Positions 18,516-37,120 of a stretch of DNA of 64,000 bases are shown piece by piece (the stretch's first letter is position 1; every line of letters begins with the position of its first letter). The position numbers and the translations under genes were made by a program. The stretch is from the NCBI GenBank assembly GCA_963764725.1, contig CAVXTM010000001.1, positions 408,147 to 472,146 of the forward strand. Direction: 5' to 3'. The notes under the pieces were generated by a model, which was not told the origin of the DNA, made no database searches, and saw only the letters and a program-made list of their open reading frames with translations. This DNA comes from an uncultured Gammaproteobacteria bacterium. Its GTDB lineage: Bacteria; Pseudomonadota; Gammaproteobacteria; JACCXJ01.

Positions 18516-18670
18516 CGAAGTATATTGATTCATACAGCTATGCGTATTGACCGCACATTGTCGCCTGGACATAATGGCGGAGTCGATCGGCGCCCGTTCA
18601 GCATTCGCACTAGGGGGCAAGCGCGGCAGGGCGTCTGTGCGGGCAGGCGGCGGCGCAGTGGAGGGGGCAT

Positions 18671-20426
18671 ATGGCTACAATAGCAGAACCGGGGACGGCG
18701 GACGGACGCGTGAAGCTGGGTCTCGCGCTCTCGGGGGGCGGTTTTCGCGCCTCGTTTTTTCACCTGGGCGTCCTGGCCCAGATGGCGATGCAGGGCTTGC
18801 TGCGGCGGGTGGAGGTGATCTCAACGGTCTCGGGCGGCTCGATCATCGGGGCGCTTTACTACCTGCACCTGAAGCGGCTGTTGGAATCGGAGGCGGACTC
18901 CGACCTGACCGATGGCCACTATCAGCGCTTGGTCGAGGACATCGAGCGCGATTTCTTCGCGGCCGTTCAGACCAATCTTCGCATGAGTACCTTCACCGAT
19001 CCGGCCGCGAACTTCAAGATCAGACGGCCGGACTATTCGCGCAGCGACCGCATTGCGGAGCTGTACAACGATCGCCTTTACCAAGGTGTCCTGCCCGGCC
19101 TAGAACCCCCTATCAAGATACGCGAGGTCAAGATCCAGCCTAAAGGGAGCCAATGCGGGGTTTCACCCCGAGCGCGACAACCACGGCAGAGGCGCTAAGG
19201 TCCCTATTCTCCTTGTCAATGCGACTACGCTCAACTCCGGCCGTAACTGGCGCTTTACCGCATCGCGCATGGGAGAACCGCCGCGCGACAACGCCCTAGC
19301 AAGAGAAATAGACAAGAAGGCGATCCGCTTGCGCCGGCCGCCGTCCTACACCGACATCCCGCCCTACCAACAAGACTTTACCCTAGGCCACGCCGTAGCC
19401 GCGTCCGCGTGTGTGCCGGGGATCTTTCACCCGCTCGCGATCAGTGGCCTGTACCGTGATCCCGAGATGGGAGACGAGATCCGCGTGCAGTTGGTCGACG
19501 GCGGTGTCCACGACAACCAGGGGATCCAGGGTCTCCTGGACGAAGCCTGTACCCACTTCATCGTGAGCGATGCCTCGGCCCAAATGGAAGAGATAGATGA
19601 GCCCGCTACCTACTTCGATGCGGTCTTGGGCCGCGCGGCCTCGATCTCCCAGGACCGCGTGCGCGAAGAACAGCTTTTCCGTCTGTGGGGCCCCACCGAC
19701 CGATCGCGCATCGCCTTCATGCATCTCCGGGCGGGACTGGCCACTCGTGCCATCGCCTGGCTGGGACCCGACGGGCAGCCCGGGACTCCCTCGGAGGAAG
19801 TCCTGCGACCTGCGATCTCGACCGCCGATTTTCATGTCGATGACCGGGTCCAGGATCTCGTTTCGGGGATCCGAACCGATCTCGACTCCTTCACCGAGGT
19901 CGAGGCCTGCACGCTCATGGCGGACGGGTATCTGATGAGCGACTCCGAACTCCACAGCTTGGCTGCGGCGGTGGCCGGCCGGCCGGGTGGGACCCCAAGG
20001 CCCGCGGATCTGGCGCCACCTGCGTGGGGTTTCCTCAAAATTAAGCCCTGGATGGAACGGCCCAACGAGGCCTATCTCAAGCAACTCAAAGTGGCGTCCT
20101 ATCAATTTCTCAAGCTATTCCACTTGGTCCTGCCCGGCTGGGCAAAGGAGGCGTTAGCGGTGCTCGCCCTCCTAACGCTTCTCGCGCTCGTCTGGATCCT
20201 GATCGATGTGAGGTTCTCCCTGGGCCTTATACTGCTGATGGTGATAATGTGGGGGCTGAATCGCTACAGCCGAAAGCTCGGCCGCGGCGTGTGGGTATTC
20301 CGCGTGCTGCGCGCGCCCGTGGAGGCCATCGTGCGCTTGATCACGAGAGCACTCATCCCGATGCTCGGGTCCTGGGCCATAAACTTACACTACATCAAGC
20401 GCCAGGCGAGCATGGTGCTCGCATAG
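18671..20426 (+). CDS. Patatin-like phospholipase with C-terminal TM helices (frameshift near 19160)
   Basis: LALSGGGFRA, STVSGGS nucleophile, NATTLNSG, VAASACVP, DGG. Confidence 0.85.
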
Positions 20427-23123: not shown

Positions 23124-26100
23124 ATGCGCAATACTTACCACGTATTTTTAGCAGTCGTCCTCTCGTTTAGCTCGTATGCCGCAGCGTACGGAGAGGAGAT
23201 CCGCGATTACTACGCCGAACCGGGTCTCAATCCCTTCAAGGAGACCCTCAATCAAGATCTCAACGAACACATTGATCCCTTCTCGGGCACCTTGCAGCAC
23301 AAATACGTCGATATATACATCCCCGGCAACGGCGGTCTGGATCTCAAGGTGAGCCGCGTGTATACGAGCCCGCAAGAAGCTCTCGGGGTGCGCACCGTCA
23401 CCGGCGCAGGGTGGACCATGCATTTCGGCCGCGTCGTGATTCCTACGGACTACACGGACACGCTCTGCCTGCAAGACCTCTATGCGGTCAGCACCCGCGA
23501 TAACCCATCGATCGAATTCCCCGACGGCGGCCGCGAGCTCTTGGTCCTCGATGCAGTGCACGGCACCTATCTCCTCACTAAGGGCGGCTGGCGGGCCATG
23601 TGTAACGGCAGCGGTCAGGGGCTCATCGTGACCTCCCCCACGGGCACGGTGTACACCATGGACGCGCTCAACACCCTGAACAACCATTGGAGCTGGTACA
23701 CGACCAATATTCGTGATCGGCATGGCAACACCATCGACGTCACCTACAAGACCAACTCGTCGAACTTTATTTACATCGACACGGTGACTGCAAGTGACGG
23801 CCGTCAGGTCAAATTCGAGTACCTCAATGAGGAAAGCGCGACTATCCGGCTCGATAAGATTACTGCCAATGAGCAAACGTGGATTTACCGTTACGAACGG
23901 ATCGAGGCGATCGGTCCCGGGTACGGCAACAATTACCATAACCTCATCGAGGTGATCCGTCCCGATGGTTTGCGGTGGCGATATAGTTACTATCCTTATA
24001 CCTCCCTTGAGACGGCCGGCAACTACGCTCTCAAAACCGTCACCTATCCGTACGGGGCCAATATTACCTACACGTATCAGCATATCGATTTTACCCCCAC
24101 CGATCTGTCGATCGATAGGACCACCGCTATCGCCACCAAGGAAGTTTCCAGTAATCCACCCGGGATCTCGATGGGCCCCGGCTCGTCCTTACCCAGTGGC
24201 ACCTGGAGATTCGAGTTCGCGCCCCATTCACCGGAGTTATTCTTTACCGACAATGGCACGTGGACTTCCGGACTCGACAAGACCACCGTGAGAATGCCGG
24301 GCGGCAAGCAGGTTTACTACCACTATGGGTACTCCTATACCGGGGGGCTGTCGAGCGGCATCCTGTGGGCGACCGGTCTCCTCTACAAGCAAGAAAGCTG
24401 GGACGGCTGCTCGGCCGACAGTTGCGTGGGCGTGGCATCGACATTAGTGGATGAAGTTACCAACGGCTGGGAACCGCGATTGATCTCCCGCGAGAACTTT
24501 TGGCATGGCCGTGAGGGGGTCGAAGAGGACACCTACGCCCCCCAGCTCGCGAGGAAGGTTCATAGCCGCGATGATTCCGGAAATGAGATCCGCTATGAGC
24601 AATACGATGCCTTCGGTAATGCAGGGAGAATCATTGAGAGCTCCAACCTCACTGGGGATCCCGACAAGGTGACCGAGCTCGGCTACTACATCGATCGCGA
24701 GAAATGGATCCTCCATCAAGTCGACGACGAGACCATCCTCGGGGTGAATGGCGAGGTCGTGAGCCATACCGATCGTAGCTTCAACGAGGACGGCGATCTC
24801 ATCGCCGCGGATCAGAACGGCGTCCTGACGAGCTATACCTACACTGCCGAGGGGGATCTCGCCACCGCAACCGACGCGCGCGGGAGTACTACGCGCTATG
24901 CGCGCTACCGCCGCGGCAGCGCGCAGATCGAAGAGCATCCCGAGTCAGTCACGCTTTCGCGCGTCGTCAACGACACCGGCACCGTCGCTTCAGCGATCAA
25001 CGGCCGGGGATTTACCCGCCACTTCACCTATGACGGCACGAACAGGCTGACTGGAATCACCTATCCGAACCATGCCCCGGTCAGCATCGTCTGGGACGCG
25101 AGCGGCAAGACTCTCACCCGCGGGAGCTACGAGGAGCGCATCGCATTCGATGGCTTCGGACGGGTGGTCAGCACCACGCGCGCCGACATGGCGCGCGATA
25201 TTAGCATCACACAAACGATGAAGTACGACGTCCACGGCAACAAGATCTTCGAGTCCTATCCAAACTCCGAAGCCGGGGTGAGTTATGCCTATGACCTTCT
25301 CAAGCGCCTCACCACCCTGCGGCACCCCGACGGAGCCCTACGGAGCTACGTCTACGGGGGCGGTGAGGTAGCGGAAACCGACGAGCGGGGCAATACGACG
25401 AATTACCTCTACCGCAGCTTTGGCGATCCGGACAAGGACAAAGTCCTTGTCATGATTACCGAGCCGAATGGGATCTACACGATCCTCGACTTCAACCTAC
25501 TCAACCTCCTGACGAGCGTGTTCCAGGGCGACCTTACCCCCACGGGATCGCTCTCCGGCTTTACGCGTCGGCTGAGCTATGACAGCCGCTATTTCCTCAC
25601 CTCGGTCTCAGATCCCGAGACCGGAGTGACGAGTTACGGACGCGACGAGGTGGGCAACATGATCGCGCGGCAGGTGGGAAGCTCGGGGGTGACGGCCTAC
25701 ACTTACGATGCTCTCAACCGCCAGGTGTTCAGCGACTATCCGGGCACCACCCCCGATGTGACCAAGAGCTACGATGCCGATGGACATCTCACCAAGCTCA
25801 CCAACAGCCAAGCCGTGATTGACCACCGTTATGACGAAAACGACAACCTCATCGAAAAGGTACTGACGCTCGACGGCGTCCCCTATGCGCTCAACTTCAC
25901 CTATAACGCGCTCGACGGTCTCGCAACGCTTACCTACCCCTCGGGGCGGGTGGTCAACTACCTCCCGGATGCCTTCGGTCGGCCGACTCAGGCCGCGCCT
26001 TACGTGAGCGGGGTGAGTTATCATCCTTCCGGCCAACTCGCCCGGATTAACCACGCCAACGGCGAGCGCACTGAGATCACGCTCAACGAGCGGCAGTGGA

Positions 26101-28164
26101 TTTCCGAGTTTCTGCACCACGGACTTGCGGAGCTCCATTATGGTTACGATGCGCTCGGCAACGTGCTCGGCCTGACCGATCCCTTGAACCCCGCCGAAGA
26201 CCGCGCCTTCGGTTACGATGCGCTCAATCGGCTGACGAGCGCCCAGGGCCGGTGGGGTCAAGGAACCTTGAGCTATGACGCCTTGGGCAATCTGCGCTCG
26301 CTGAACCTGGGTGCGAACACCGAGCGCTACGACTACAACGGCCTGCGGCTCAGGACGCGCATCCATAACGAGACCACTAGCTCCTGGTACACCCATGATG
26401 TCTATGGCAACGTCCGGCTGGACGTGGATGTGCTCGGTTTAAGCTCAAATGCTCCGCAGTACCGAGGGCGGCAGTATACCTACGATGATGCGGGAAACTT
26501 GCGCAATGTGCTCCGAACGGAGAACATCGGGAGCAATCCGGTGTCCTCGCAGTACTACTTCGACTACGATGCTTTGGGGCAGCAGATCCGGCGCACCGCT
26601 CCCAACGGGGAGATCATCCACTTCGTCTATGGGCGCACCGGGCAGTTGCTCGGTGAGTACAGCGGCTCGCTCGGTTACGGCAAAGAATATGTCTACCTCG
26701 GCAGCCAGTTGGTCGGGAGCGCCCAAACCAACCAACCTCCCGAGGCCCAGGCCGGAGCGGACCGGAGCGTCAACGGCGGGGCGTCCGTGCAACTCGATGG
26801 CCGGGGCTCGACGGATCCCGATGGCGCCATCGCGCGTTACGCCTGGGTGCAGACCGAGGGCAGTCCCGTTACCTTGAGCGGGGCAGCTGCAACGGTGAGC
26901 TTCAGCGCCCCGGTGCTGGAGAACACCTCGGTGCTCGGCTTCACCCTCACCGTCACCGATGACAGCGGCGAGGAGGCACAGGACAGCGTGCGGATCACCG
27001 TGCTCGGGAACCCTGCACCCACCGCTGATGCAGGCCCCGATCAGAGCGTGCGGGGTGCTGCCATTGTCGCTCTCGACGGGACGGCCTCGAACGACGCCGA
27101 CGGCCACATCGCCCGCTACGCCTGGCGGCAGATCGGCGGCATGCCTGTGACCCTGAGTGGGGCCGACACCGCGATCCCGAGCTTCACCGCACCGACGCTA
27201 GCCGAGGCCCAGGTGCTGAGCTTCGAGTTGACCGTAAGCGACAATCTCGGCGCGCAGGCCACCGCCGCGGTGCACATCACCGTCCTCGGCAACGAACCCC
27301 CGAGCGCCCATGCGGGTGCCGATCAAACGGTGCCGGGTGGCAGTCCGGTAGGGCTCGATGCCACGGGCTCGACGGATCCCGAGGGGAGCATCATCGCTTA
27401 CACTTGGTCGCAGACGGGCGGTCCGGCCGTGAGCCTGATTGGCGCAGATACCTCGACCCCGACCTTTATGGCCCCCCTCTCTGGCAACGACGAGGTGCTC
27501 AGCTTCACCCTCACGGTGAGCGACGACATCGGTGCGAGTGGAAGCGATTCGGTGACCATCACCGTGCAACGCGTAGCGCTCGGCAATCAACCCCCGAGCG
27601 CCGAGGCGGGAGTCGATCAAGAGCTACGCGCCGGGGGTGTTGTAGAGTTGAATGGCGGGGCCTCCACCGATCCCGAGGGCCAGCCCCTTCGCTATCAGTG
27701 GGCCCAACTCGAAGGCCCGCGCGTCCAGCTCGCGGGCGCGAGCACCTCCCGGGCGCGCTTCACCGCCCCTTATGTCGCGATCGACACGCTCCTCCGCTTT
27801 GAGCTGACGGTGACCGACAGCGCAGGGCTCTCGGCCGAGGACACGGTGGACATCGTGGTGCAACCGAATGTACAGGGCACAGACACGCAAGCACCCATCA
27901 CCCGGCTCTTCACCACCCCCCTGCGCTTCGGAGGCAGGGTATACTACCCCGTGGCTTCTCAGCGCCAACGAGCCTGCCACCACCTACCTGCGGGTGAGCG
28001 ATCCCAACGCGCTCAGCCTGGGGGCGCTCAAGACCACCGAGTGGCAGGTGTATCGAGGACCCTTCCTCGTCACGCTCACCGCCGCTCGGACCCTTACCGT
28101 GGAGTACTACTCCATCGACAGCGCCGGGAATCAGGAATCCATCAAAACAAGGGTATTGCAGTGA
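23124..28164 (+). CDS. Secreted Rhs/YD-repeat shell protein ending in four PKD-like domains and a small Ig-like domain (frameshift near 27950)
   Basis: Sec signal; IDPFSG..GAGW N-domain; many YD repeats; four N.PP.A.AG.DQ.V repeats at about 26730-27870; tail ...EYYSIDSAGNQESIKTRVLQ* in the 27868-28164 frame. Confidence 0.82.
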
Positions 28165-29113
28165 TGACAACCAAAGGACGGTGTATGCGTTTCCTTATTG
28201 CGTGTCTCCTCACACTCCTCGCCCTGCCGGCAGGAGCGATCGAGCGGGTCATCCACTACCACAACGACGCCTTGGGCTCCCCCATCGCCGCGACCGATCA
28301 AGATGGCCGCGTGGTGTGGCGCAAGTCGTATGGGCCCTATGGCCAGCCTATCGGCCCGGGGGCCCCGAACGAGCCCGGTTACACCGGCAAGTTCGACGTG
28401 CCCGGCCTCGGCATCCAAAACTTCGGGGCCCGCTGGTACGACCCGCGGATCGGCCGCTTCCTCGCCATCGATCCCGCGGCTTCGATCCCTAGAACCCCCA
28501 GAGCTTCAACCGGTACGCGTATGCCAATAACAACCCGTATCGCTTTGTAGACCCCGACGGCAATAGTCCCCTCGATGTAGGCTTCTTCATCGCCGACACC
28601 GTCAGCTTCGGGCTCGCGGTGGCCTCGGGAAACCCGGCCGCCATCCAGTCTGCGGCCTTCGACTTCGCTGCTAGCGCCGTGGGCCTTGCGAGCCCGATAC
28701 CGGGAACCGGGCTCGCTATCAAGGCGGCACGGGCGGGGGATAAGATCAGCGACGCGGCGAAGATAACTAAGGGTGCAGCGAACCCAGTTCCAGAAACGCT
28801 TGCTCGTGTTATTCCGGGTCGAGGGCCGTTTCCGACACTTGGCTCGCCAGGGAAAAGCGATGTGTTCGTTACGGCTGCCGACGATATTGCGGGCTTGAAC
28901 GCTAAACAAATCGCCGATCGACTGACTATCGCTCCAGCTGACTCCTTCACTGTCATCAAGTTTCCAACTCCAGAGAGTGGGTTAGCCAGCCCGGTCAACC
29001 GGGTTGGTCCCGGCTTCGTTGGCGGAGGGCGAACAGCTGGCGGCGCTCGCGAGTTCGTCGTCCCCAACGGACCGATTCCGTCGGGCGCAAGCACTGAGAT
29101 TATCGGCCCATGA
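28164..29113 (+). CDS. Stand-alone Rhs core protein with its own signal peptide and C-terminal Ntox10-like toxin (1-bp deletion near 28478; TAG at 28490)
   Basis: TGATG coupling; MRFLIACLLTLLALPAGA signal; HYHNDALGSP, GARWYDPRIGRF, NRYAYANNNPYRFVDPDG; tip VFVTAADD...GFVGGGRTAGGAREFVVPN. Confidence 0.78.
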
Positions 29114-29394
29114 AGCTGCAGCCGCAAGAAACCGATCTTGTAGGGACATGGATTAGCAGCGGACGTGCGGTGCGCGCAGACGAAACTTGTAGGCGTATCG
29201 AATGGCTTGTCAAGGAAGTCTTGGAAGAAGTGGCCGTGAGTCCTCAATGGGGCGCATGGGAGACGCTATTCCGCGATCTCGAAGATGGTCGCTTTTGGGA
29301 GCGTACTTACCCTGAAGGGCATATGCACGGCGGTGGCCCCCCGCGACTGACATGCATCTCGCCGGAAGAGGCTAGAACCAAGTATGCGATATAG
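29110..29394 (+). CDS. Imm27-family immunity protein
   Basis: ATGA overlap with the toxin; WETLFRD..DGRFWE..YP...HGGGPP.L. Confidence 0.8.
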   Translation: MKLQPQETDLVGTWISSGRAVRADETCRRIEWLVKEVLEEVAVSPQWGAWETLFRDLEDGRFWERTYPEGHMHGGGPPRLTCISPEEARTKYAI

Positions 29395-29439
29395 TGCGGG
29401 AATATATGACCACAGATCCCGTAGCGATCGAGATTGTCA

Positions 29440-29823
29440 ATGTCCAGCCATGCCGTTGATGACCTTGTTGGCAGGACCTTCTACGCCTCCATTGCGGAGC
29501 CTTGGGATTTTGAGTCAGATGCAGGGCAAAACAAGTTGGAGGGCACGATTCAGCGCGCTCTTTTTGATCGGTATGGGAATGTGCTGTTGCTTTGTCAGGT
29601 GGTACCCTTTTTTTTCGCGACAAAGAGAATCGACGAAGTTGTAGCAGTAAACAGGTATCAGGGTAGCCAAGATGTGCTTGATGCTCTGAGAGCTAAAGGT
29701 ACCGCAACTTTGAATTTCATGTTCCAGAGATCTGGGGGCGCGTTCCAGGATGGTAGTATTGAGATTTCATTGAGCGATAGGCGTAGTTGCGGTTTTGTGG
29801 TCGGGACGATGCACTTGCCGTAA
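29440..29823 (+). CDS. Hypothetical protein, possible orphan immunity protein
   Basis: Lower-GC ORF of about 127 aa directly after the immunity gene. Confidence 0.55.
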   Translation: MSSHAVDDLVGRTFYASIAEPWDFESDAGQNKLEGTIQRALFDRYGNVLLLCQVVPFFFATKRIDEVVAVNRYQGSQDVLDALRAKGTATLNFMFQRSGGAFQDGSIEISLSDRRSCGFVVGTMHLP

Positions 29824-29899
29824 AGCTGCCAAACGCTTCCTTTGTAAGCTAGCCTGCGAGGCACGCGAGAACAAATAGGCGTTCAGCGTATGTAGATGT

Positions 29900-30485
29900 A
29901 GGCTTTCTCAGGCACGATACTGAAGGGGTAAGTCAGCCCTCGCCAGCACCGGTGAAACGACAAGAAGAGGAGCGGCCGCGCTTCCCTTCCGCTTATTTCT
30001 GGGCGATGGCACGGATTTATGAAGTCTTCCCGCTGCTCTGTCCGCGTTGCGCCGAAGACGATCATCGCCTTCGTCACCGAGGCGGGCTCGATCAAGCGTA
30101 TTCTCGAATACCTCGGGCAGCCGACAACTCCGCCCCCCCATTACCCCCGCTCGCGGCCCGCCGCACTGGGGTCGATGACATCGATCAAACGCCGAAGTAC
30201 GACGCGGCGCTCGCTCAGCGAGCGCCGGACTATGAGTTTGATCAGACCATCAGCTCATTTCGTCTCCCGGTCGAGATCCTCGGCCGGCAGAGCTGCCCTC
30301 GCCCTAATACACCCGTTTCCGGTCCCTGAGTCACCCCGACGCACCAGGCAATGTCCTTTCCTGCCGCTAGACGGCCCACACATGGCCTCAATCGCCAGGG
30401 TGCGACCTGTCGCGCGACAGTATGTCGCCTTCCCATCCCCATGGGCGTAAGCTAGAATCTGGGTATGTGGTTGGATTTCCTATCC
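29900..30485 (+). mobile_element. IS91/ISCR-family remnant: transposase C-terminus and oriIS end
   Basis: WAMARIYEVFPLLCPRC..IIAFVTE..IKRILEYLG.P...ARGPP; GTGGTTGGATTTCCTATCC at 30467-30485 resembles ISCR oriIS. Confidence 0.75.
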
Positions 30486-30593
30486 ATTATCCATCGACCT
30501 GGAGATGCCCCCACCTCCACGATCAGAGCCGTGGCATCGCCCGAGCCGTCCGCCATCGTGGAACACCATCGCTCCACGAATAGCCCAGCTGCC

Positions 30594-32644
30594 ATGAGAA
30601 CTGCGGCCACCGAAGCTCTCTACGTCCGAAATACCCCGGAGGCCCGCGACCACGTGCAACGCTGGATGCCGATGGAGGTTGACCAGCTCAAGTCCGAGCC
30701 ACTGCGGCGCGTCGCCCCGTTTGAGGCGACGCTTCTCGAACGCGGCTTCCCGTTCCACGAACTTTCGCTGGTCATCAGTGCCGACCGGCGAGCACACGAC
30801 CCGGTCTACGGCGCCCACCGGTGGTGGGCGCGGCGCCCGCCAGCGCTCCTCAGGTCCATTTTGCTCACTGCGGCGCTGCCGGCTGACGTGTCGTCCAATG
30901 AATTCTGGGCGCTGTATGGGTCGAACGGGGCGCTTGCTCGATGGATGGCGTGTCCATGATCCCTTCGTCGGGGGTGGCTCGACACTTGTCGAGGCAGCTC
31001 GTCTGGGAAGCAGGATATCGGGCGGCGACATCGATCCGTTGGCGGTCGAACATCGTGCGGTATGAGCTGAACCCTGCGTCGGCAGAACAAATCCGTGCCG
31101 CAGGGGAGCAGCTGCTGACCTACGTTCGCTTGCAATGTGGGCACCTCTATCCGTCATCGGCACGCAGGCAGCCGCTCCATTACTTCTGGCTCCACGAAGT
31201 CACTTGCCCCTCCTGTGGCGGGATCGGCCTGTTGTATCGCGATCTCCTGCTCACACGAGATCGGCAGAAGCCAGGCGCCGTGGTTCGCGATCACCCTCTC
31301 ACCGTCTTCTGCCCGAGTGACCTAAGCATCCATCATCTCAACAGCCCGGATCGTCGGGAGCTTCGACATCGCGGTCGTCGATGGCCGATTGCCCGCGGCA
31401 CGTTCAGCCGCAACAGATACACCTGCCCTCACTGCGGCAAAACTTCGACTCACAAGGAACTACTCACGGGTAGCGCACCACGCCGCTTGATTGCTGTGGA
31501 GGACACTGCACCAGGGCAACGCCGAACCCTGCGCAAGCCATCACGCGAGGACATAGCGGCGATGGCCCGCGCAGCCGTGTGGCTGAGCGAACACCGCAAC
31601 ACATTGGCGCTCCCGACCGCAGTACTGTCGAAGGAGCGTCACGACGAGCGGCCTCGGAGCTTCGGGATGCTCCACTCGACGGACCTGTTCACCGACCGGC
31701 AGCTGACGGTCTTTGGCTCTGCGTTTCGATGGCTTGGTACGGCAGACCTTGAACCGAACGTGCGGGATGGTCTCCGTCTCGCCGTCTCGAACGCGCTCGC
31801 GACGAATAACAAGCTATGCAGCTATGCCTACGATTATGGTCGGCTGTCGGCGCTCTTCAGCGTGCGCGGCTATTCGCTGCCTGCGCTACCGGTCGAACTG
31901 AACCCTCTCCATCCAGACAGCGGTCGTGGCACGCTCCACCACTGCATAGAACGCGTCGCGCGAAGTGGTCGTGAGAAGGTTCGCCGTCACGTCTGGTCAC
32001 CGGCCCGTGACTGTGTCTATGCTCGAACCCTTGATTTGCCTACCGGTGTTGCCACCGACGATGTCCGCTGTACCTCGGCAACCTCCCCGCCGGCGGCTGG
32101 TGCGCCGAGCGCAGACCTTTGCGTCTTCGACCCGCCGTACTTCGACTACATCGCATACGAAGAACTATCGGAGTTCTTCCGGGCATGGCTCGAGCCGAAG
32201 GCAGTGTCGGGAACGCCTCTCCTGCCCGTCGGGCGCGACCCCGGCGAGTCATTCGGCCTCGAGCTCGGCGTAGCGCTGCGCGCAGCATTAGCACGCCTCG
32301 CACTAGGCCGCCCCCTCGCCTTCACGTATCACTCGACCAACCCCAAGGCCTGGCGAGCCGTGGGCATCGCAATAGACGAAGCAAAGCTTCGGGTTATGGG
32401 CCTGTGGCCCGTGTACAGCGACGGCCACATGGGTCACCACAGCCACCCCGGAAACTGCGAGTGGGATTTAGTGGTCGTGTGCCGTCGCGTCAGTGAGACG
32501 GTACCAGCAACCGCCACATTCGATACCGACGTCTGGGCCCGGACAGCACAACCGCTCGCTATCGGTGATGCCGATCGCACCAGCATGAAACTTGCGATTT
32601 CCATCGTCAGCTCCCGTTTCGGGACCGCGGCCAAGGAGTTATGA
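30594..32644 (+). CDS. DUF1156/COG1743-like Zn-ribbon adenine DNA methyltransferase (frameshifts near 30935 and 31050; start uncertain)
   Basis: HRWWARRP, DPFVGGGSTLVEA (motif I), CPSC/CPHC Zn ribbon, DPPYFD (motif IV), FTYH. Confidence 0.85.
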
Positions 32645-32645
32645 C

Positions 32646-33979
32646 TTGAACGCCGACGAGCGCAGTCAGCTCATCCGGGCTCGCCAGCAGCCAGCTACAC
32701 GCCCGCCTGAACGACTTTGGGTGCGGGACCAGTGGCAGGAGTTCCCGGTAGTACAGGTCCCGGTGGAAGCGCTCGCGCTCAACGTCGACAACCGACGATT
32801 TGCGGCTGAGCGCACATGGGCGGAAGAGAAGCTCGGGCGAGCACTCGATCCCGAGAACCGGCCCGAAGACGAGCGCGTCGTCGAACAGATTTTGCTCGAC
32901 ACCGCGCTCGACTTCGATGGTGATCGTCTCGTGGGTAAGCCGAGTAAGGATTACGACGCCCTGAAGAAGGACTGGCAGCGACGGCATCAAGAATCGCCCC
33001 TGTGGATCCGCCCAGACGGAACTGTCCGGAACGGAAACCGACGGCTCGCGATGCTGAAGCGGCTGCAGCGCGAAGAAGGTATAGAGGGCTTCGAGTACGT
33101 GGACGTCGTGATTCTAAAGCCCGATGACATCGATGAGGTCGCGCTGTTCGACATGGAGCAGCGCGAGCAGCTGACCGAGAACCTCAAGGTCCGATACACC
33201 GACATAAATCTGCTTCTTGCCATACGAGCGGCTGCAGAGTCACGGGGCATCGACTGGTTCAACCCGGACGACATCGACCGCGTCGCGGGCGAACTCCAGC
33301 ATGTCGTCGGGAACAACAAGGCCTACGCCGCTATCCAGCTCAGCGCCATCCGTTACATGGATGCGTACCTGGATAGCTCCGATCAGGCTGGCCAATACCA
33401 CAAACTCATCGGTCAGATTGAGCGCTTCCGTGACGTCGGTAAAGCAATGACCAAGCTTGAGGTCGACTACGAAGATGATGTCCCAGCCATGCTGCGAGTT
33501 CTGTTCGCGGCCATCCGTGCGGGTGCCCCGCACGGCGACATTCGCGTTCTGAAGAACTTATTCCTCCACGACCGCGCGAGATATAAACAGCTGCTCGCGC
33601 AAGTGGACGGAATCGAGGCGAGCTGGGAGCAGGCCGCCGGGCCGGACAGCCTCGCGGAGCCTGAAGTGGTCGACATCGCCCCTGCTGCAGACGAAGAAGA
33701 GGACGAAGACGAGCTAGCCGAGCCGCCGGGTCCGAACGTGCCCAACTACCCGCGTGACGATATCCGGGACGCCATCGACAACACGATCGATGGCTTCCAA
33801 GCGTCCATGACCGATGACGTCGCCAAGACGCTCCGCCAGATCCTCAACCGGTTAGAGGCCTCAGCGATGACGGCGGTAAGCTCGATCAAGCTCTCGGGGG
33901 TGAGCACGCTGTACGGGTCCGGGACGCTCTCGCTGCGATCGTCGCCTGGGCGGATCGTCATCGCGACCTGCTCGGTTAG
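32646..33979 (+). CDS. ParB/Srx-like N-terminal domain protein with acidic linker (frameshift near 33860)
   Basis: AAGGAG RBS and TTG start; LALNVDNRR, PLWIRPDGTVRNGNRRLAML; C-terminus ...WADRHRDLLG* in the shifted frame. Confidence 0.75.
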
Positions 33980-33981
33980 CG

Positions 33982-35949
33982 ATGGCCGGCGAACCTGCCG
34001 ACGCGACTATCCGCATTAACGGCGAGTCGGTCCTAGTAACCGGTTCCGAGGCTCTACAGAGTCGCAACGCGCGTCTCTTCTTCCGCTCCGTTCTCGGCGC
34101 GGATGGCGAGGCCGGCGGCTGGCGTTGTCCGCGTCGCAACCGCTCCCTCGCTGCGCTGGTCGTTCGGGTCAACAATTTCCTGGAGAACCAAGGGTGGCGA
34201 GTCGAACGAGAAGGACTAGCCGACCGGGAAGTTGAGCGAGAGCTCGAACGTCGCCGCAGCTTCGAACGGACCCGCCGAACTGCCTCCGAGTGGAAAGAGG
34301 GAAGCCCGGTCATCGACCGCGAGGCGGTTCTCGCCGGGATCAATGATCTTGGGTGGTCACAATCGCGAACTCTGCGGCCACACCAGGTAGATGGCCTCTT
34401 GCACGCCCTCGTCGCGGGAAACGCAGCAAACTTTTCAGTACCGGGCTCGGGCAAGACCGCTACGGCACTCGCCGTCGCGGCCGCGCATCTAGTGGCCGGC
34501 ACGATCGACACAGTTGTAGTCGTGGGACCCTTGGCCTGCTTCAGGCCGTGGGAAGACGAAGTGGCAGCGACGCTCGGTAGCGTGCTCCATACGAGGCGCA
34601 TCCGTGGTCCGGCTCGCACGAGACGCCTGCAGTACGACTCAACTCAGCCTCGCGATCTGCTACTCCTCAGCTACGCGACTGCAGCCGCAGACCTACTTGT
34701 ACTAGTCGAACTCTGCAGGGGCCGCGATGTGATGCTCGTCGTCGACGAGTCGCACCGCATCAAGAGATTCCGTGGTGGCCTGTGGGCACCAGCACTCATG
34801 CAGATCGCAGAACACGCACGGGTCCGGCTACTTCTTTCCGGAACACCGATGCCCCAGAGCGGCCGTGATCTGTATAGCCAGCTCAACGTCATCTGGCCCA
34901 ACCGGCAGCTCACCGGTCCACCGGACACATTCGCCTCGCGGGTCGATTCTCAATTCGAAGGCGTGCTGTGCGACATCCATCCGTTCGTTGTGCGGACGCC
35001 GAAAGAGAGCCTCGGACTACCGCCGTATGAGATCCATCGGCACGACATCGCCATGAACGCGACACAGGCCGAGATCTACGAACTGATCGTCAACCACTTC
35101 CGACGCAGGCTTGAAGACGCCGACGCATGGGTCGACAAGTTGGACGCCCTGCGCCGTGCGCGGCCGATTCGGCTCCTGCAGGCTGCCACTAATCCGAACC
35201 TGTTCAACCGGTCCGACAGCTACTACCGCGTCCCCCGCATCGACCGCGCGAATCCGACCCTCATGGATCGGCTCGCCACGTACATGGAGCACGAAGTCCC
35301 GGCCAAGCATGAACTAGCTCTGGTGCTCGTCGCCGAAGCAACGGGGCGCGGCGAAAAGGTTGTCTGTTGGAGCAACTTCCTCATCAACCTCGATCAATTC
35401 GGCGATCTCGTCCGGAGACGCCTCGACATCCCGTGCCATCAGGTCGACGGGCGCGTGCCGACGGACGACGAGCCCGTTGATGACCAACCAGCCGCGTCGC
35501 GCAAGAACTCGGAGGAGATTGATACGCGCGAGAGAATCATTGCTCGCTTCCTCCGAACGCCCGGCCCAGGGGTGCTAATCGCCAATCCCGCATCGTGCTC
35601 GGAATCCATCTCGCTTCATACCACCTGTCATAACGCGGTTTACCTTGACCGAACTTACGACTGCGCCCAGTTCCTGCAGTCGATCGACCGGATTCACCGC
35701 CTCGGCTTGCCAGCTGATGTCACTGTCCAGGTCCATATTCTCCGCGCCAGTCTCAATGGCGAGCCCGCAGTCGACCACCTCGTCGACGCCTCACTCCTGG
35801 CGAAGGAGGCGGTGATGCTTGAACTACTCGAGGGTGCCGTCCTGCAGCCCATTAGGCAGAGCGACGACCCTGTCGACGATGCTGAGGGCAATCGGCAGGA
35901 TCTCGAAGCGCTGCTCCGGTATCTCCTCGGAGAGGAGGTGGGCAGCTGA
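33982..35949 (+). CDS. SNF2-like (SF2) helicase/translocase
   Basis: LRPHQ, NFSVPGSGKT, VDESHRIK, LSGTP, SESISLH, QSIDRIHRLG. Confidence 0.92.
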   Translation: MAGEPADATIRINGESVLVTGSEALQSRNARLFFRSVLGADGEAGGWRCPRRNRSLAALVVRVNNFLENQGWRVEREGLADREVERELERRRSFERTRRTASEWKEGSPVIDREAVLAGINDLGWSQSRTLRPHQVDGLLHALVAGNAANFSVPGSGKTATALAVAAAHLVAGTIDTVVVVGPLACFRPWEDEVAATLGSVLHTRRIRGPARTRRLQYDSTQPRDLLLLSYATAAADLLVLVELCRGRDVMLVVDESHRIKRFRGGLWAPALMQIAEHARVRLLLSGTPMPQSGRDLYSQLNVIWPNRQLTGPPDTFASRVDSQFEGVLCDIHPFVVRTPKESLGLPPYEIHRHDIAMNATQAEIYELIVNHFRRRLEDADAWVDKLDALRRARPIRLLQAATNPNLFNRSDSYYRVPRIDRANPTLMDRLATYMEHEVPAKHELALVLVAEATGRGEKVVCWSNFLINLDQFGDLVRRRLDIPCHQVDGRVPTDDEPVDDQPAASRKNSEEIDTRERIIARFLRTPGPGVLIANPASCSESISLHTTCHNAVYLDRTYDCAQFLQSIDRIHRLGLPADVTVQVHILRASLNGEPAVDHLVDASLLAKEAVMLELLEGAVLQPIRQSDDPVDDAEGNRQDLEALLRYLLGEEVGS

Positions 35950-35950
35950 C

Positions 35951-36920
35951 GTGCCTGTGCTCTCTTCCTGGTTCACGGCACCTCGAGTGCGTCGTCTGCA
36001 CGAGGTGCTCGCGGCGATACCGGAACGGTCGCTAGCGCTCGCCGAGGGCGATGCGAAGCTGTGTATCTGGCGGCGTTGTGGTGGGCCGATCGATGAAGTC
36101 GGCGTGTTGGTCGAGGTTCTCGTCCATGCCGAACTTGTGCGCCGCGAGAAGGCATCACTCCGGTTGACTGCCGCTGGGCGCCGGACACTCACGCGTAACC
36201 GCGTCGAGCAGAATCGGCCGCTCGCGCTCGCCCTCGTCCGAGCGGGACTGCTCCATGACCAAGCGCGAGCATTGCTCGACTCCTTCCCTGTCGACCCTGA
36301 CGGCAGCTTGACTTGTCGAACCAACGATGCGCGTCGTGTTGCTCCCCAGCTCGTTGGGCTTGTTCAGCTCTGGACCGAGGTCCGCACTGGCTCCACGTTG
36401 ACCATCCCGCGTCCACTCGTTGACGAGCTCGCCGCCGTGTGGGCGCTCATTGCACCGCCGTCAGAGGCACGGGCAGAGCAAGAGAAAAGACGCAAGTCGA
36501 TCGGGAACCGCGCAGAGGCCTACAGCTACCAACTGGAGCGGCTCACAGCGGCAGCCGCGTCCGGGATCGTCTGGGTCGCGCAGGACGACGACACGCTTGG
36601 CTATGACCTGGAGGATCGCAGTACGTTGCCCCGTAGACGGATCGAAGTGAAGGGAAGTGGAGGAGAAGCTAGAGGCTCAGTTCTTCATGTCGGACAACGA
36701 ATGGCGAAAGGCCCACGAGAACCCCGGAAGCTACGAGATCCACTTCTGGGGCGGGATAGACCTCAATCGACCCACCGCCGACGAATACTCCGTGCTGCGG
36801 TCGATGGGATATCCGATTGTGCTGCGAGACGTGCCAGCGCTCCTCGCCGCGGGAGAGCTCTTGGCGAAGCCAGATCGATGGCGCGTCGCGGCGGCTCGCA
36901 GCGCGGAGACGCCGCTATAG
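35951..36920 (+). CDS. wHTH-like N-terminus fused to DUF3883 (NO VEIN-type PD-(D/E)xK) endonuclease (frameshift near 36670)
   Basis: IGNRAE..YE, GYDLED...RRIEVKGS, FFMSDNEW, YEIHFW. Confidence 0.82.
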
Positions 36921-37019
36921 CAGAGAGGGAAAGGCGCCAGGAGCGAGTATTTCGATCGATGCCCAACAAAAAAATAAGCGACCCTGGCCCCTTCCGCGCA
37001 CACCCCTCGCGCTCACCCG

Positions 37020-37120
37020 GCGCGACTCCTGTGCGCCGGGACTTGAATATGCCTGGAGGTGGTCAGGAAGTCACCTTCGATACCTTAATCCCGCCGGAAG
37101 CAATCAGGAGGGTCAGATGA
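37020..37120 (+). pseudogene. Orphan polymorphic-toxin C-terminal tip fragment
   Basis: TPVRRDLNMPGGGQEVTFDTLIPPEAIRRVR*, with ATGA overlap onto a small ORF. Confidence 0.45.

Follow-up and report, generated by a model that had tools for sequence, protein, structure and literature searches.

A candidate two-gene, Sec-dependent Rhs toxin locus encoding a coreless YD shell and a core-toxin protein separately

Introduction

In the current view, an Rhs toxin is one polypeptide chain that encloses the toxin it carries. A locus of an uncultured gammaproteobacterium, located in a stretch of 64,000 nucleotides that was analysed as a whole (the window), raises the question whether shell and toxin-bearing plug may also be provided as two polypeptides, each exported on its own. 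An earlier note on the sequence had put forward such a reading, and all of the elements it listed for the locus were found in place.

Organization of the locus

The locus probably represents a two-gene, Sec-dependent Rhs polymorphic toxin system consisting of a shell gene (ORF1) and a plug/toxin gene (ORF2). Its features are as follows:

23124 to 23186, + strand: predicted signal peptide of ORF1, MRNTYHVFLAVVLSFSSYAAA (about 21 residues; from the translation)
23187 to 26717, + strand: coreless YD/Rhs shell, last residues EYVYLGSQLVG (RHS_repeat, 1.2e-37; YD_repeat_2x, 4.8e-21)
26730 to 27875, + strand: four K319L-like PKD domains (PF22352, 1e-70, four stretches; PKD_4, 7.3e-29)
27880 to 28164, + strand: C-terminal tail of ORF1, OmpL47-type-like, sub-threshold (NF047446); includes the stop TGA 28162-28164
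27953 to 27954, + strand: lesion 1, extra base, ORF1 frame lost (alignment against 4/4 homologous loci)
28164 to 28238, + strand: ORF2 start (ATG within TGATG) and predicted signal peptide MTTKGRCMRFLIACLLTLLALPAGA (frames, alignment)
28239 to 28561, + strand: Rhs C-terminal core, IERVIHYHNDALGSP ... NPQSFNRYAYANNNPYRFVDPDG (PF03527, TIGR03696), enclosing lesions 2 and 3
28477 to 28478, + strand: lesion 2, missing base, ORF2 frame lost (alignment against 4/4 homologous loci)
28490 to 28492, + strand: lesion 3, TAG in the frame of the homologues (Gln codon in 4/4 homologues)
28562 to 29113, + strand: Ntox10 toxin domain (PF15520, 6.7e-43, profile positions 1-192 of 193; stop TGA 29111-29113)
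29110 to 29394, + strand: Imm27 immunity gene (PF15590, 3.3e-19), its ATG overlapping the toxin stop codon

In ORF1, the Pfam search returned RHS_repeat and four K319L-like PKD stretches. The YD/RHS repeat array (PF05593, 1.2e-37; TIGR01643, 4.8e-21) forms a shell with a partial match to PDB 7q97_A and ends in EYVYLGSQLVG (ORF1 residues 1188-1198, nt 26685-26717). The shell had been said to break off at this point, in agreement with which neither the Pfam (PF03527) nor the NCBIfam model (Rhs_assc_core, TIGR03696) detects an Rhs core in ORF1. The four PKD-like repeats described for the remainder of the protein are present, and the 'Ig-like' label of its tail is tentative only: the OmpL47-type barrel model (NF047446) reaches 30.3 bits at a cut-off of 40, and on the tail of an intact homologue (L024) 28 bits, likewise under the cut-off. 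A hydrophobic N-terminal window is found in 96 of the 120 shell homologues listed, and a conserved EEIRDYYxEPG follows this window. Read in the frame of the homologues, ORF1 terminates at TGA 28162-28164, overlapped by the ATG 28164-28166; the TGATG described previously is thus seen at 28162-28166. Pfam detected no PAAR or VgrG domain at the locus.

The N-terminus of ORF2 reads MTTKGRCMRFLIACLLTLLALPAGA/IERVIHYHNDALGSP. It shows the Sec-type features attributed to it before, judged here, as in the case of ORF1, by visual inspection and a crude hydrophobicity rule. The proposed start at MRFLIAC is the second in-frame Met. The signal-peptide part is alignable in paralogues and orthologues, and the leader family keeps a basic N-end, a hydrophobic stretch, and an AxA-like site despite widely divergent residues. 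A lipoprotein reading of LIAC in this leader was rejected, as most family members have no Cys there. The missing core, the Ntox10-like tip, and Imm27 were all matched by Pfam, in ORF2 as RHS (PF03527, 3e-10) and Ntox10 (6.7e-43), with the Imm27 model matched in the adjacent gene; TIGR03696 also matches ORF2 and scores 73.9 bits (cut-off 32.5) on an intact ORF2 homologue. The stretch from the signal peptide to DPDG (28550-28561), a self-cleavage motif predicted from sequence, measures only about 105 residues, and this core aligns to residues 1178-1289 of 7q97_A, ending at DPLG. A single-chain model of an intact ORF2 homologue has a mean pLDDT of 59.6, and only the helix of the signal peptide, a small number of hairpins in the core, and two helices that follow DPDG are predicted with confidence. 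In the passages of Zhang et al. (2012; PMC3482391) on this pair, Imm27 is the primary immunity protein of Ntox10.

Elsewhere in the window, a patatin-like gene at ~19145 also has a frame-broken look, and a DUF1156 methylase gene split at ~30950 is another accessory gene that is apparently frame-broken.

Lesions of the window copy

As assembled, the window copy contains two one-base frame breaks and one TAG, none of which occurs in the homologues. The indel suspected near 27950 corresponds to an extra base at ~27953/4 in comparison with 4/4 homologous loci, and moves the shell out of frame. Because of this shift and since the other frame is open into ORF2, the 1808-aa ORF present at 23124-28550 in the ORF list is a chance fusion of both genes. 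The interval 28470-28495, flagged previously, holds the other two lesions, namely one base fewer at ~28477/8 than in 4/4 homologous loci and a TAG at 28490-28492 that lies in frame and takes the place of a Gln codon present in each of the four homologues. A single indel after the TAG was considered as the whole break of ORF2 and rejected, the homologues reading GFDP-Q-NPQSF across the stretch. Lesions 2 and 3 together sever the toxin part from the signal peptide and core of ORF2, and the Ntox10 frame differs from the start frame of ORF2. Judged by these frames, the window copy would be unable to work as assembled, and represents either a decaying copy with its immunity retained or a mis-assembly.

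It is conceivable, albeit with some doubt, that the copy is intact in the living organism, the frame breaks (perhaps also the TAG) being consensus errors of metagenome assembly in a multi-copy, strain-variable region. Both indels alter the length of a short G run and at least one other frame break lies within the same window; the housekeeping genes of the window, however, match Pfam at full length, three lesions in 540 bases are dense, and in the case of the TAG the difference is a substitution and not a change of length. Reads were compared via four metagenome runs, in the form of short contigs of related populations (at most 0.30 of the sampled words were present in any run). The core region is 10-50x deeper than its flanks in these related metagenomes and therefore multi-copy and variable, which speaks for an intact copy hidden by assembly errors. 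The extra base at ~27953/4 is mostly absent from the related contigs, and position 28490 is C, not T, in all of them (20, 27, 26, and 13 contigs in the four runs). The related populations are without the three lesions, which says nothing on the source strain itself.

Conservation in related genomes

Three other genomes of the same genus contain four homologous loci, all of which (4/4) have the same two genes with an identical TGATG (5/5 in the alignment, window included). The two-gene reading is borne out by these homologues, which carry two ORFs and no single continuous one: with stop and new start conserved in 4/4 loci, shell, core, and toxin are not on one polypeptide here. Both genes are intact in two of the loci (L021 and L024), to whose shells the window shell is 88-89% identical. 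The ORF1 tail shows 87-92% identity across the four loci, and the PKD region varies in length among homologues (open frames of 1558 and 1751 aa).

Among paralogues, the core is 73-93% identical while the toxin parts differ. In line with the exchangeable toxin cartridge envisaged earlier, toxin cartridges are many and variable among relatives. A close shell is encoded in 10 of the 12 related genomes having signal-peptide-core genes, and in no related genome without them; G007 and G012 (both 89% complete) harbor signal-peptide-core genes and no close shell. The genome of the window has exactly one core and one shell, adjacent to each other, and G011 has at least seven close core-gene copies and one full shell. 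Unlinked core-gene copies possess their own Shine-Dalgarno-like AGGAAGGAG and start codon, read from the conserved NRKET codons.

Split and fused cores in a wider survey

The survey covered 87 complete core genes at 69 public loci of Gamma- and Betaproteobacteria. Of these genes, 80 encode the core in an ORF of its own and seven in fused form, a ratio that describes this clade, not Rhs proteins generally, as the 70 loci retrieved were found with a profile of the same core type. A signal-peptide-like N-terminus follows the start codon in 75/80 split core genes (crude hydrophobicity rule). Shells were found by profile search, since regex counts of YD motifs missed known shells: a full coreless shell gene precedes 36 split core genes (31 loci), a broken shell or shell fragment precedes nine more, and for 21 of the 80 the upstream 4 kb or more are free of any shell. 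Some relatives carry arrays of 3-4 core-toxin genes, and in L056 and L076 tandem core arrays occur with no shell in view. The two-gene arrangement is common in proteobacteria. Spacing between shell stop and ORF2 start is variable in other loci, and the relative frames differ. An upstream ORF scan (35/62 upstream ORFs, 15 loci) revealed no conserved outer-membrane exporter and no recurrent family, with a secretin at one locus and LysR regulators at two.

Proteins composed of signal peptide, core, and toxin numbered 357 at E<=1e-5 among 521 candidates, and in 106 of the 120 listed a hydrophobic N-terminus is followed by YYHNDALGSP. The signal sequences of these small core-toxin proteins are very different, with AxA-like sites kept. 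Conversely, PF03527 was found in 15 of the 120 shell homologues listed (in none of the top 56), and the core by motif in five of the 120. Coreless shells end in variable adhesin-like C-terminal domains, consistent with a shell C-terminus freed by the split as had been suggested; that the split is needed for adhesion domains does not hold, since in some relatives Ig/FN3 domains are located on the second protein, between signal peptide and core.

In fused relatives, a linker of 8-16 residues connects shell and core (7/7). Split shells without extra domains end 5-6 residues past the last shell motif at eight of 10 loci (13 and 24 residues at the other two), and in most of the 10 YYHND starts ~3-5 residues after the predicted signal-peptide cleavage site. 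From these distances, the cut is seen to fall exactly in the linker of the fused relatives, with nothing missing or duplicated. Fused and split shells look intermixed on the shell tree (32 rows, 5 fused), a fusion/fission pattern that requires four changes, no fewer than with shuffled labels. This tree comes from a quick search, has long branches, and was rooted at its midpoint.

Proposed mechanism and alternatives

That shell and plug assemble in trans is suggested by the linkage of their genes in an operon, by their co-occurrence, by the exact fit of the two pieces at the cut, and by the repeated fusion/fission among relatives. Gene 1 would provide a signal peptide, a complete YD cocoon without C-terminal Rhs core, and surface-type domains. 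Gene 2, presumably coupled translationally to gene 1 via TGATG, would provide a second signal peptide, the ~105-residue core (plug and DPxG self-cleavage site), and Ntox10, and gene 3 the Imm27 immunity protein. Both proteins are supposed to pass the inner membrane unfolded via Sec. Once in the periplasm, protein 2 may dock by its mature N-terminus where a single-chain Rhs core would continue, closing the shell with the toxin inside, and cleavage would occur at DPDG. The loaded, PKD-decorated shell might then be released by a general route and bind target cells. As core and toxin form a separate exported gene, unlinked core-toxin copies with other toxins could use the same shell without recombination. 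A bolder reading, offered tentatively and with some reservation, takes the periplasmic YD shell as a reusable container for many independently exported core-toxin cartridges, loaded in trans after translocation.

The two products might alternatively be independent, the core-toxin protein acting as a free Sec-secreted toxin with the core remnant as a self-cleaving pro-piece, and the shell with its PKD domains as an adhesin or in another role. This is unlikely, in spite of the 21/80 split core genes without a shell within 4 kb or more upstream, the tandem arrays without a shell in view (L056, L076), and the core genes of G007 and G012 without a close shell, since operon linkage is tight in 31 loci, with TGATG coupling here, and the cut leaves nothing lost or doubled. 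Core genes outnumber shells several-fold (e.g. at least seven copies for one full shell in G011), as independent products would allow; fused relatives, on the other hand, are nested among split ones, and the core, which aligns to 7q97_A 1178-1289, forms strands inside the shell in solved Rhs structures. Moreover, the core protein models poorly alone (mean pLDDT 59.6), and a coreless shell, conserved across many genera, would stay open at one end.

It is very improbable that frameshifting or read-through at TGATG joins ORF1 and ORF2 in translation, with the 'signal peptide' being an internal hydrophobic linker. Two frames do overlap by one base, and one frame happens to span both genes as assembled, but no slippery heptamer precedes the stop, stop/start spacing and relative frame vary in other loci, unlinked copies have their own AGGAAGGAG and start codon, and a linker would not need AxA-type sites. 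A local accident, i.e. a pseudogene or assembly artefact of one continuous rhs gene, is less probable still: it could invoke the three lesions and the frame-broken look of the patatin-like (~19145) and DUF1156 methylase (~30950) genes, but these lesions are separate from the split itself, stop codon, overlapping start, and signal peptide are kept in 4/4 homologous loci, and the arrangement is seen again at 31 more loci in many genera.

Trans-assembly of two Sec-signalled pieces, cut between shell and plug, would allow a cocoon in the periplasm to be closed, and filled in trans, with substrates that are still unfolded. In the split class, a spare toxin cassette would be usable directly, recombination not being required, and the cut point would be a surface site tolerating large adhesin domains on either new end. 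The reusable-container reading, if true, would overturn the view that an Rhs toxin needs enclosure by its own chain, and toxins would be changed by expression instead of recombination. Intact loci are present in cultured isolates that are non-pathogenic, which makes the system testable and possibly convenient for studying the filling of YD cocoons.

Comparison with known systems

In the literature searched, no description of a two-gene, Sec-exported shell/core Rhs arrangement was found. The only two-piece cocoon known to us is TcB/TcC, which is cytoplasmic. The BC subcomplex of Tc toxins (TcB with interchangeable TcC) resembles the arrangement proposed here in being a two-polypeptide cocoon whose second chain carries core and toxin, and YenC1-3 are alternative second subunits from distinct loci with YenB as common partner, as described in the cited sections of PMC11067744. 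The two arrangements differ, however, in where the chain is split and in the cell compartment: TcC supplies ~680 conserved shell residues (same sections of PMC11067744), compared to ~105 core-only residues from ORF2. Tc proteins, which dock on TcA, are not known to carry a Sec signal. By Pfam, neither ORF1 nor its intact homologue matched SpvB, a TcB-type beta-propeller, or any other domain specific to Tc toxins.

With single-chain Rhs proteins (e.g. PDB 7q97 'Rhs family protein'; Tse5, 8cp6; RhsA of Pseudomonas protegens, PMC8765631) the locus shares the YD-repeat cocoon, the C-terminal core ending in DPxG, the variable toxin past the cleavage site, and the immunity gene directly downstream. 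Unlike in these proteins, the chain is cut here in the linker between last shell repeat and core, a start codon and a predicted signal peptide are found on the core-toxin part itself, and export is predicted to be via Sec, not a T6SS. As proposed for the locus, the Sec-dependent polymorphic toxins WapA of Gram-positives (PMC12704120) and MafB of Neisseria (PMC4287609) have a Sec signal at the N-terminus and a variable toxin at the C-terminus, together with an immunity gene and spare cassettes. WapA, however, forms one chain that includes its core, and MafB is not known to have a YD shell or an Rhs core. In the Ntox10/Imm27 passages of PMC3482391, Ntox10 is listed with RHS repeats and a Sec-type ('T2SS') route for Bacteroidetes and Verrucomicrobia, whereas this locus is gammaproteobacterial; a split shell/core is absent from these passages.

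Classical orphan rhs-CT cassettes also form arrays of variable toxin/immunity modules with a common conserved core piece, and the displaced modules of Acidovorax radicis N35 (L107) all retain a piece of the shell gene from its 3' end. According to the cited sections of PMC11067744, classical orphans have neither a start codon nor an export signal, and must recombine into the main gene. Here, in contrast, every cassette forms a complete ORF in which a start codon is followed by a predicted signal peptide.

Organization of the locus

The Rhs-type locus consists of two genes, ORF1 for a YD shell lacking the Rhs core and ORF2 for the core and its toxin, each opening with a signal-peptide-like leader. 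Its main features (window positions) are:

23124-28550, + strand: long ORF of 1808 aa, opening with the signal-peptide-like MRNTYHVFLAVVLSFSSYAAA
26685-26717, + strand: EYVYLGSQLVG, reached by the YD part of ORF1
28162-28164, + strand: TGA, the ORF1 stop in the frame of its homologues
28164, + strand: ATG of ORF2, inside TGATG; the protein opens MTTKGRCMRFLIACLLTLLALPAGA/IERVIHYHNDALGSP

YD repeats extend over ~1180 residues behind the ORF1 leader (RHS_repeat, 1.2e-37; YD_repeat_2x, 4.8e-21), and Pfam and NCBIfam searches of the ORF1 protein gave no match to RHS core models. Behind the shell lie four K319L-like PKD domains (1e-70, four stretches) and a short tail with a sub-threshold resemblance to an OmpL47-type barrel (30.3 bits against a cut-off of 40; 28 bits in an intact homologue). 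ORF2 matches RHS (PF03527) and Rhs_assc_core (TIGR03696) and, after ...NPQSFNRYAYANNNPYRFVDPDG, Ntox10 (6.7e-43); an intact Imm27 gene (3.3e-19) overlaps the stop codon of the toxin. Since the domains, the stop, the TGATG start, the core, Ntox10, and Imm27 were all found by domain searches and inspection of reading frames, the earlier note described the locus correctly in every element. In 7q97_A, a solved Rhs protein, the 110 residues leading up to the DPLG site (1178-1289) align with the ORF2 core; TccC3, YenC2, and Tse5 align with it as well.

As a toxin/immunity pair, Ntox10 and Imm27 are already known: Zhang et al. (2012; PMC3482391) connect Ntox10 with RHS repeats and a Sec-type route and give Imm27 as its primary immunity protein. 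In a single-chain model of ORF2 from L024, a same-genus locus, two long confident helices (residues 136-175, pLDDT 83-91) come right after DPDG. They are hydrophobic and lie at the beginning of the Ntox10 match; speculatively, they could aid membrane entry. Two ORFs at 29434-30450 (129 and 143 aa, without family matches), located in a G+C dip (0.506 at 29500-29999), could be spare immunity genes. A defence-island-like set follows directly downstream (30465-37120), with a methylase, then an SNF2/ZorD-like helicase (33982-35949), and unassigned ORFs around the helicase.

Conservation within the genus and state of the window's copy

The two-gene arrangement proposed in the earlier note recurs in all four same-genus loci compared (L021 and L023 from genome G005, L022 from G001, and L024 from G006), each with separate shell and signal-peptide-core ORFs. 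The gene order shell, PKD, tail, signal-peptide-core, toxin is kept in 4/4 of them, identities to the window range from 87 to 92% for the shell and from 89 to 92% for the core, and no difference is seen around TGATG across 5/5 loci. Both ORFs are uninterrupted in L021 and L024, and the L022 shell carries two frame changes. This conservation comes partly from genomes flagged unpublished (G001, G005); L024 by itself shows the same. A split locus without PKD domains was seen in the complete genome G039 (L038, 6457-10885): the shell, with one frame change and two in-frame stops, ends ...EYIYLGGKRIAQRVSN, and an ORF of its own then begins with a signal peptide before ITYFHNDIAGTP.

Alignment with the four loci revealed three lesions in the window: one extra base at ~27953/4, one base missing at ~28477/8, and TAG at 28490-28492, where all four have a Gln codon. 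The 1808-aa ORF exists because the extra base throws the shell protein off its own frame; the alternative frame by chance stays free of stops over ~70 codons and leads into ORF2. The missing base and the TAG cut the toxin off from its signal peptide and core. Among related-population contigs from four metagenome runs (X1-X4), the TAG is absent in all and the extra base in most; these runs contain related sequence only, and the share of sampled words is at most 0.30 in any sequencing run. The lesions may be real or may be consensus errors, and the window's copy may be dead. Elsewhere in the window, housekeeping genes match at full length, a patatin-like phospholipase gene (18529-20423) is frame-broken at ~19145 when compared with its intact homologue of 598 aa in L022, which could be either a real break or an assembly error, and the DUF1156-type DNA methylase looks split at ~30950 into two ORFs (30465-30959 and 30941-32644). 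In X1-X4, cave metagenomes from a single study, contig depth summed over the core (28223-28577) is 10-50x that of the flanks, consistent with a large number of core-bearing genes and strains there.

Survey of related loci

A profile of 41 second components, i.e. ORF2-type genes (alignment A1), retrieved 70 loci from a one-genome-per-species collection, which were then searched with shell and core profiles.

Placement of 87 complete core genes (69 loci)
Downstream of a full coreless shell ORF: 36/87 (31 loci)
Upstream 4 kb or more free of a shell: 21/87
Contig end too near to judge: 14/87
Behind a frame-broken or fragmentary shell: 9/87 (5 loci)
Fused to the shell in one ORF: 7/87

The split to fused ratio of 80:7 describes this clade only, since the query derives from this core type. 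Among the split cores, 75/80 passed a crude signal-peptide rule; by eye, three of the remaining five leaders resemble signal peptides all the same. Cores without an upstream shell include tandem arrays (L056, L076) and loci with the shell gene downstream (L051, L084, L100, L108). Cultured carriers are found in Pseudomonas (sp. ABY48, P. syringae pv. cilantro, P. brenneri, P. brassicae, P. carbonaria) and beyond it (Shewanella fidelis, Ferrimonas futtsuensis, Zooshikella ganghwensis, Pokkaliibacter plantistimulans, Acidovorax radicis N35, Massilia, Pseudoduganella). A. radicis N35 harbors three signal-peptide-core-toxin genes in tandem (L107, 8782-14579), the second and third each preceded by a short 3' shell fragment (profile positions 1038-1150 and 1097-1150), which implies that a displaced module takes along the end of the shell, the stop codon, and the second gene in full.

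Families of second components and coreless shells

The first 109 residues of ORF2 find matches in 23 of 61 related genomes searched, including 11 of the 14 of the family. Many of these matches, in open frames of 116-443 aa, align from residue 7-9 and hence include the signal peptide. Close copies number five in G003, five in the unpublished genome G005, and at least seven in G011, with one full-length shell match in each; an in-frame stop, a Shine-Dalgarno-like stretch, and a start codon lie upstream of these copies. In a collection of 5.8 billion proteins, 357 of 521 candidates of 172-550 aa match ORF2 residues 1-110 at E<=1e-5. In 106 among the 120 matches listed, the N-terminus is hydrophobic and YYHNDALGSP follows, the other 14 being mostly truncated gene calls. 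The leaders are highly divergent in sequence, with the basic N-end, the hydrophobic core, and an AxA-like site kept (e.g. AQA/VEE, GQA/IERV, ASA/KDR). In databases, the annotation of these proteins is a bare 'RHS repeat domain-containing' or 'RHS repeat-associated core domain-containing'.

Residues 700-1198 of an intact shell match 2812 proteins at E<=1e-10 among 8000 scored candidates. Among the 120 shell matches listed, PF03527 occurs in only 15 (in none of the top 56), a core is recognized by motif in only five, and 96 show a hydrophobic N-terminus, usually followed by EEIRDYYxEPG. Domains C-terminal of the shells vary: PKD, Sde0182_C, PQQ propellers, dockerin, Ig-like, FN3, and thrombospondin-type repeats. 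Shell proteins with such extra domains in L072, L075, L088, and L098 end in a common motif (IPILHLLLH, IPILHNLLY, IPIRSLLLN, PAIDLLLN) that could be a sorting or docking signal.

Position of the cut and relationship of the two products

At the sequence level, the cut between split shell and core is exact, with no part lost or duplicated. In 7/7 fused relatives, 8-16 residues link the last shell motif (...YLGxxxxA) to YYHxD; where the shell is split and lacks extra domains, it stops 5-6 residues past this motif in eight of ten loci (13 and 24 in the other two), and in most of these ten the core begins ~3-5 residues downstream of the predicted cleavage site of the signal peptide. Extra Ig/FN3-type domains are located either at the shell C-terminus (window) or between signal peptide and core of the second protein (L055, L084, L108, L050), positions that are the two new ends made at one single point. 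In these four loci and L045, the second protein consists of a signal peptide, Ig/FN3 or other domains (45 to ~1100 residues), core, and toxin; the adhesin-like part is on the cartridge, not on the shell.

In a tree of 32 shells (quick search, midpoint root, several long branches), the five fused ones are scattered among the split, requiring four changes, about the same as with shuffled labels; this scattering implies repeated fusion and fission. A close shell is present in 10 of 12 related genomes having signal-peptide-core genes (the two exceptions are each 89% complete) and absent from every related genome without them, these genomes being related and the observations therefore non-independent. 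The genome from which the window comes contains a single core and a single shell, adjacent to each other. The two products probably work together. The earlier note's interpretation, a two-component Rhs assembling in trans, holds at the level of genes and evolution (homologous loci, survey, cut position, tree); the assembly of shell and core-toxin itself is something we infer.

A possible mechanism

Both proteins, with their predicted signal peptides, would be exported unfolded through Sec. A single-chain Rhs emerges in the order shell, core, toxin; this order would be preserved by docking of the second protein, through its N-terminal core, on the finished or finishing shell. The docked core would draw the toxin in before the plug closes, and cleavage at DPDG would then release it within the shell. 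Coupling through TGATG would supply both partners together, cartridges at unlinked sites would compete for one shell, and the PKD domains and tail would lie outside the shell, at the junction, serving binding. The outer-membrane step might use a type II secretion system (T2SS), vesicles, or lysis. No conserved exporter was found among the upstream ORFs scanned at 15 loci; in P. brenneri (L089, 2082-4481) the shell gene is closely preceded by one for a GspD-type secretin, the only such case in these 15.

Comparison with known systems

Full-text literature searches, whose coverage leaves out most subscription journals, found no description of an Rhs protein in which shell and core are separated and the core-toxin part bears a signal peptide. 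The split Rhs, with a core-toxin predicted to be exported separately, would be a variant of a known toxin type, apparently undescribed, and is worth experimental study in an intact, culturable carrier. A parallel is found in Tc toxins, which have a two-piece cocoon with exchangeable second subunits (YenB with YenC1-3; PMC11067744). According to the same paper, the Tc second subunit supplies ~680 residues of the shell, whereas the split Rhs is cut between shell and core; Tc toxins are there without a Sec signal, and their complex docks on TcA.
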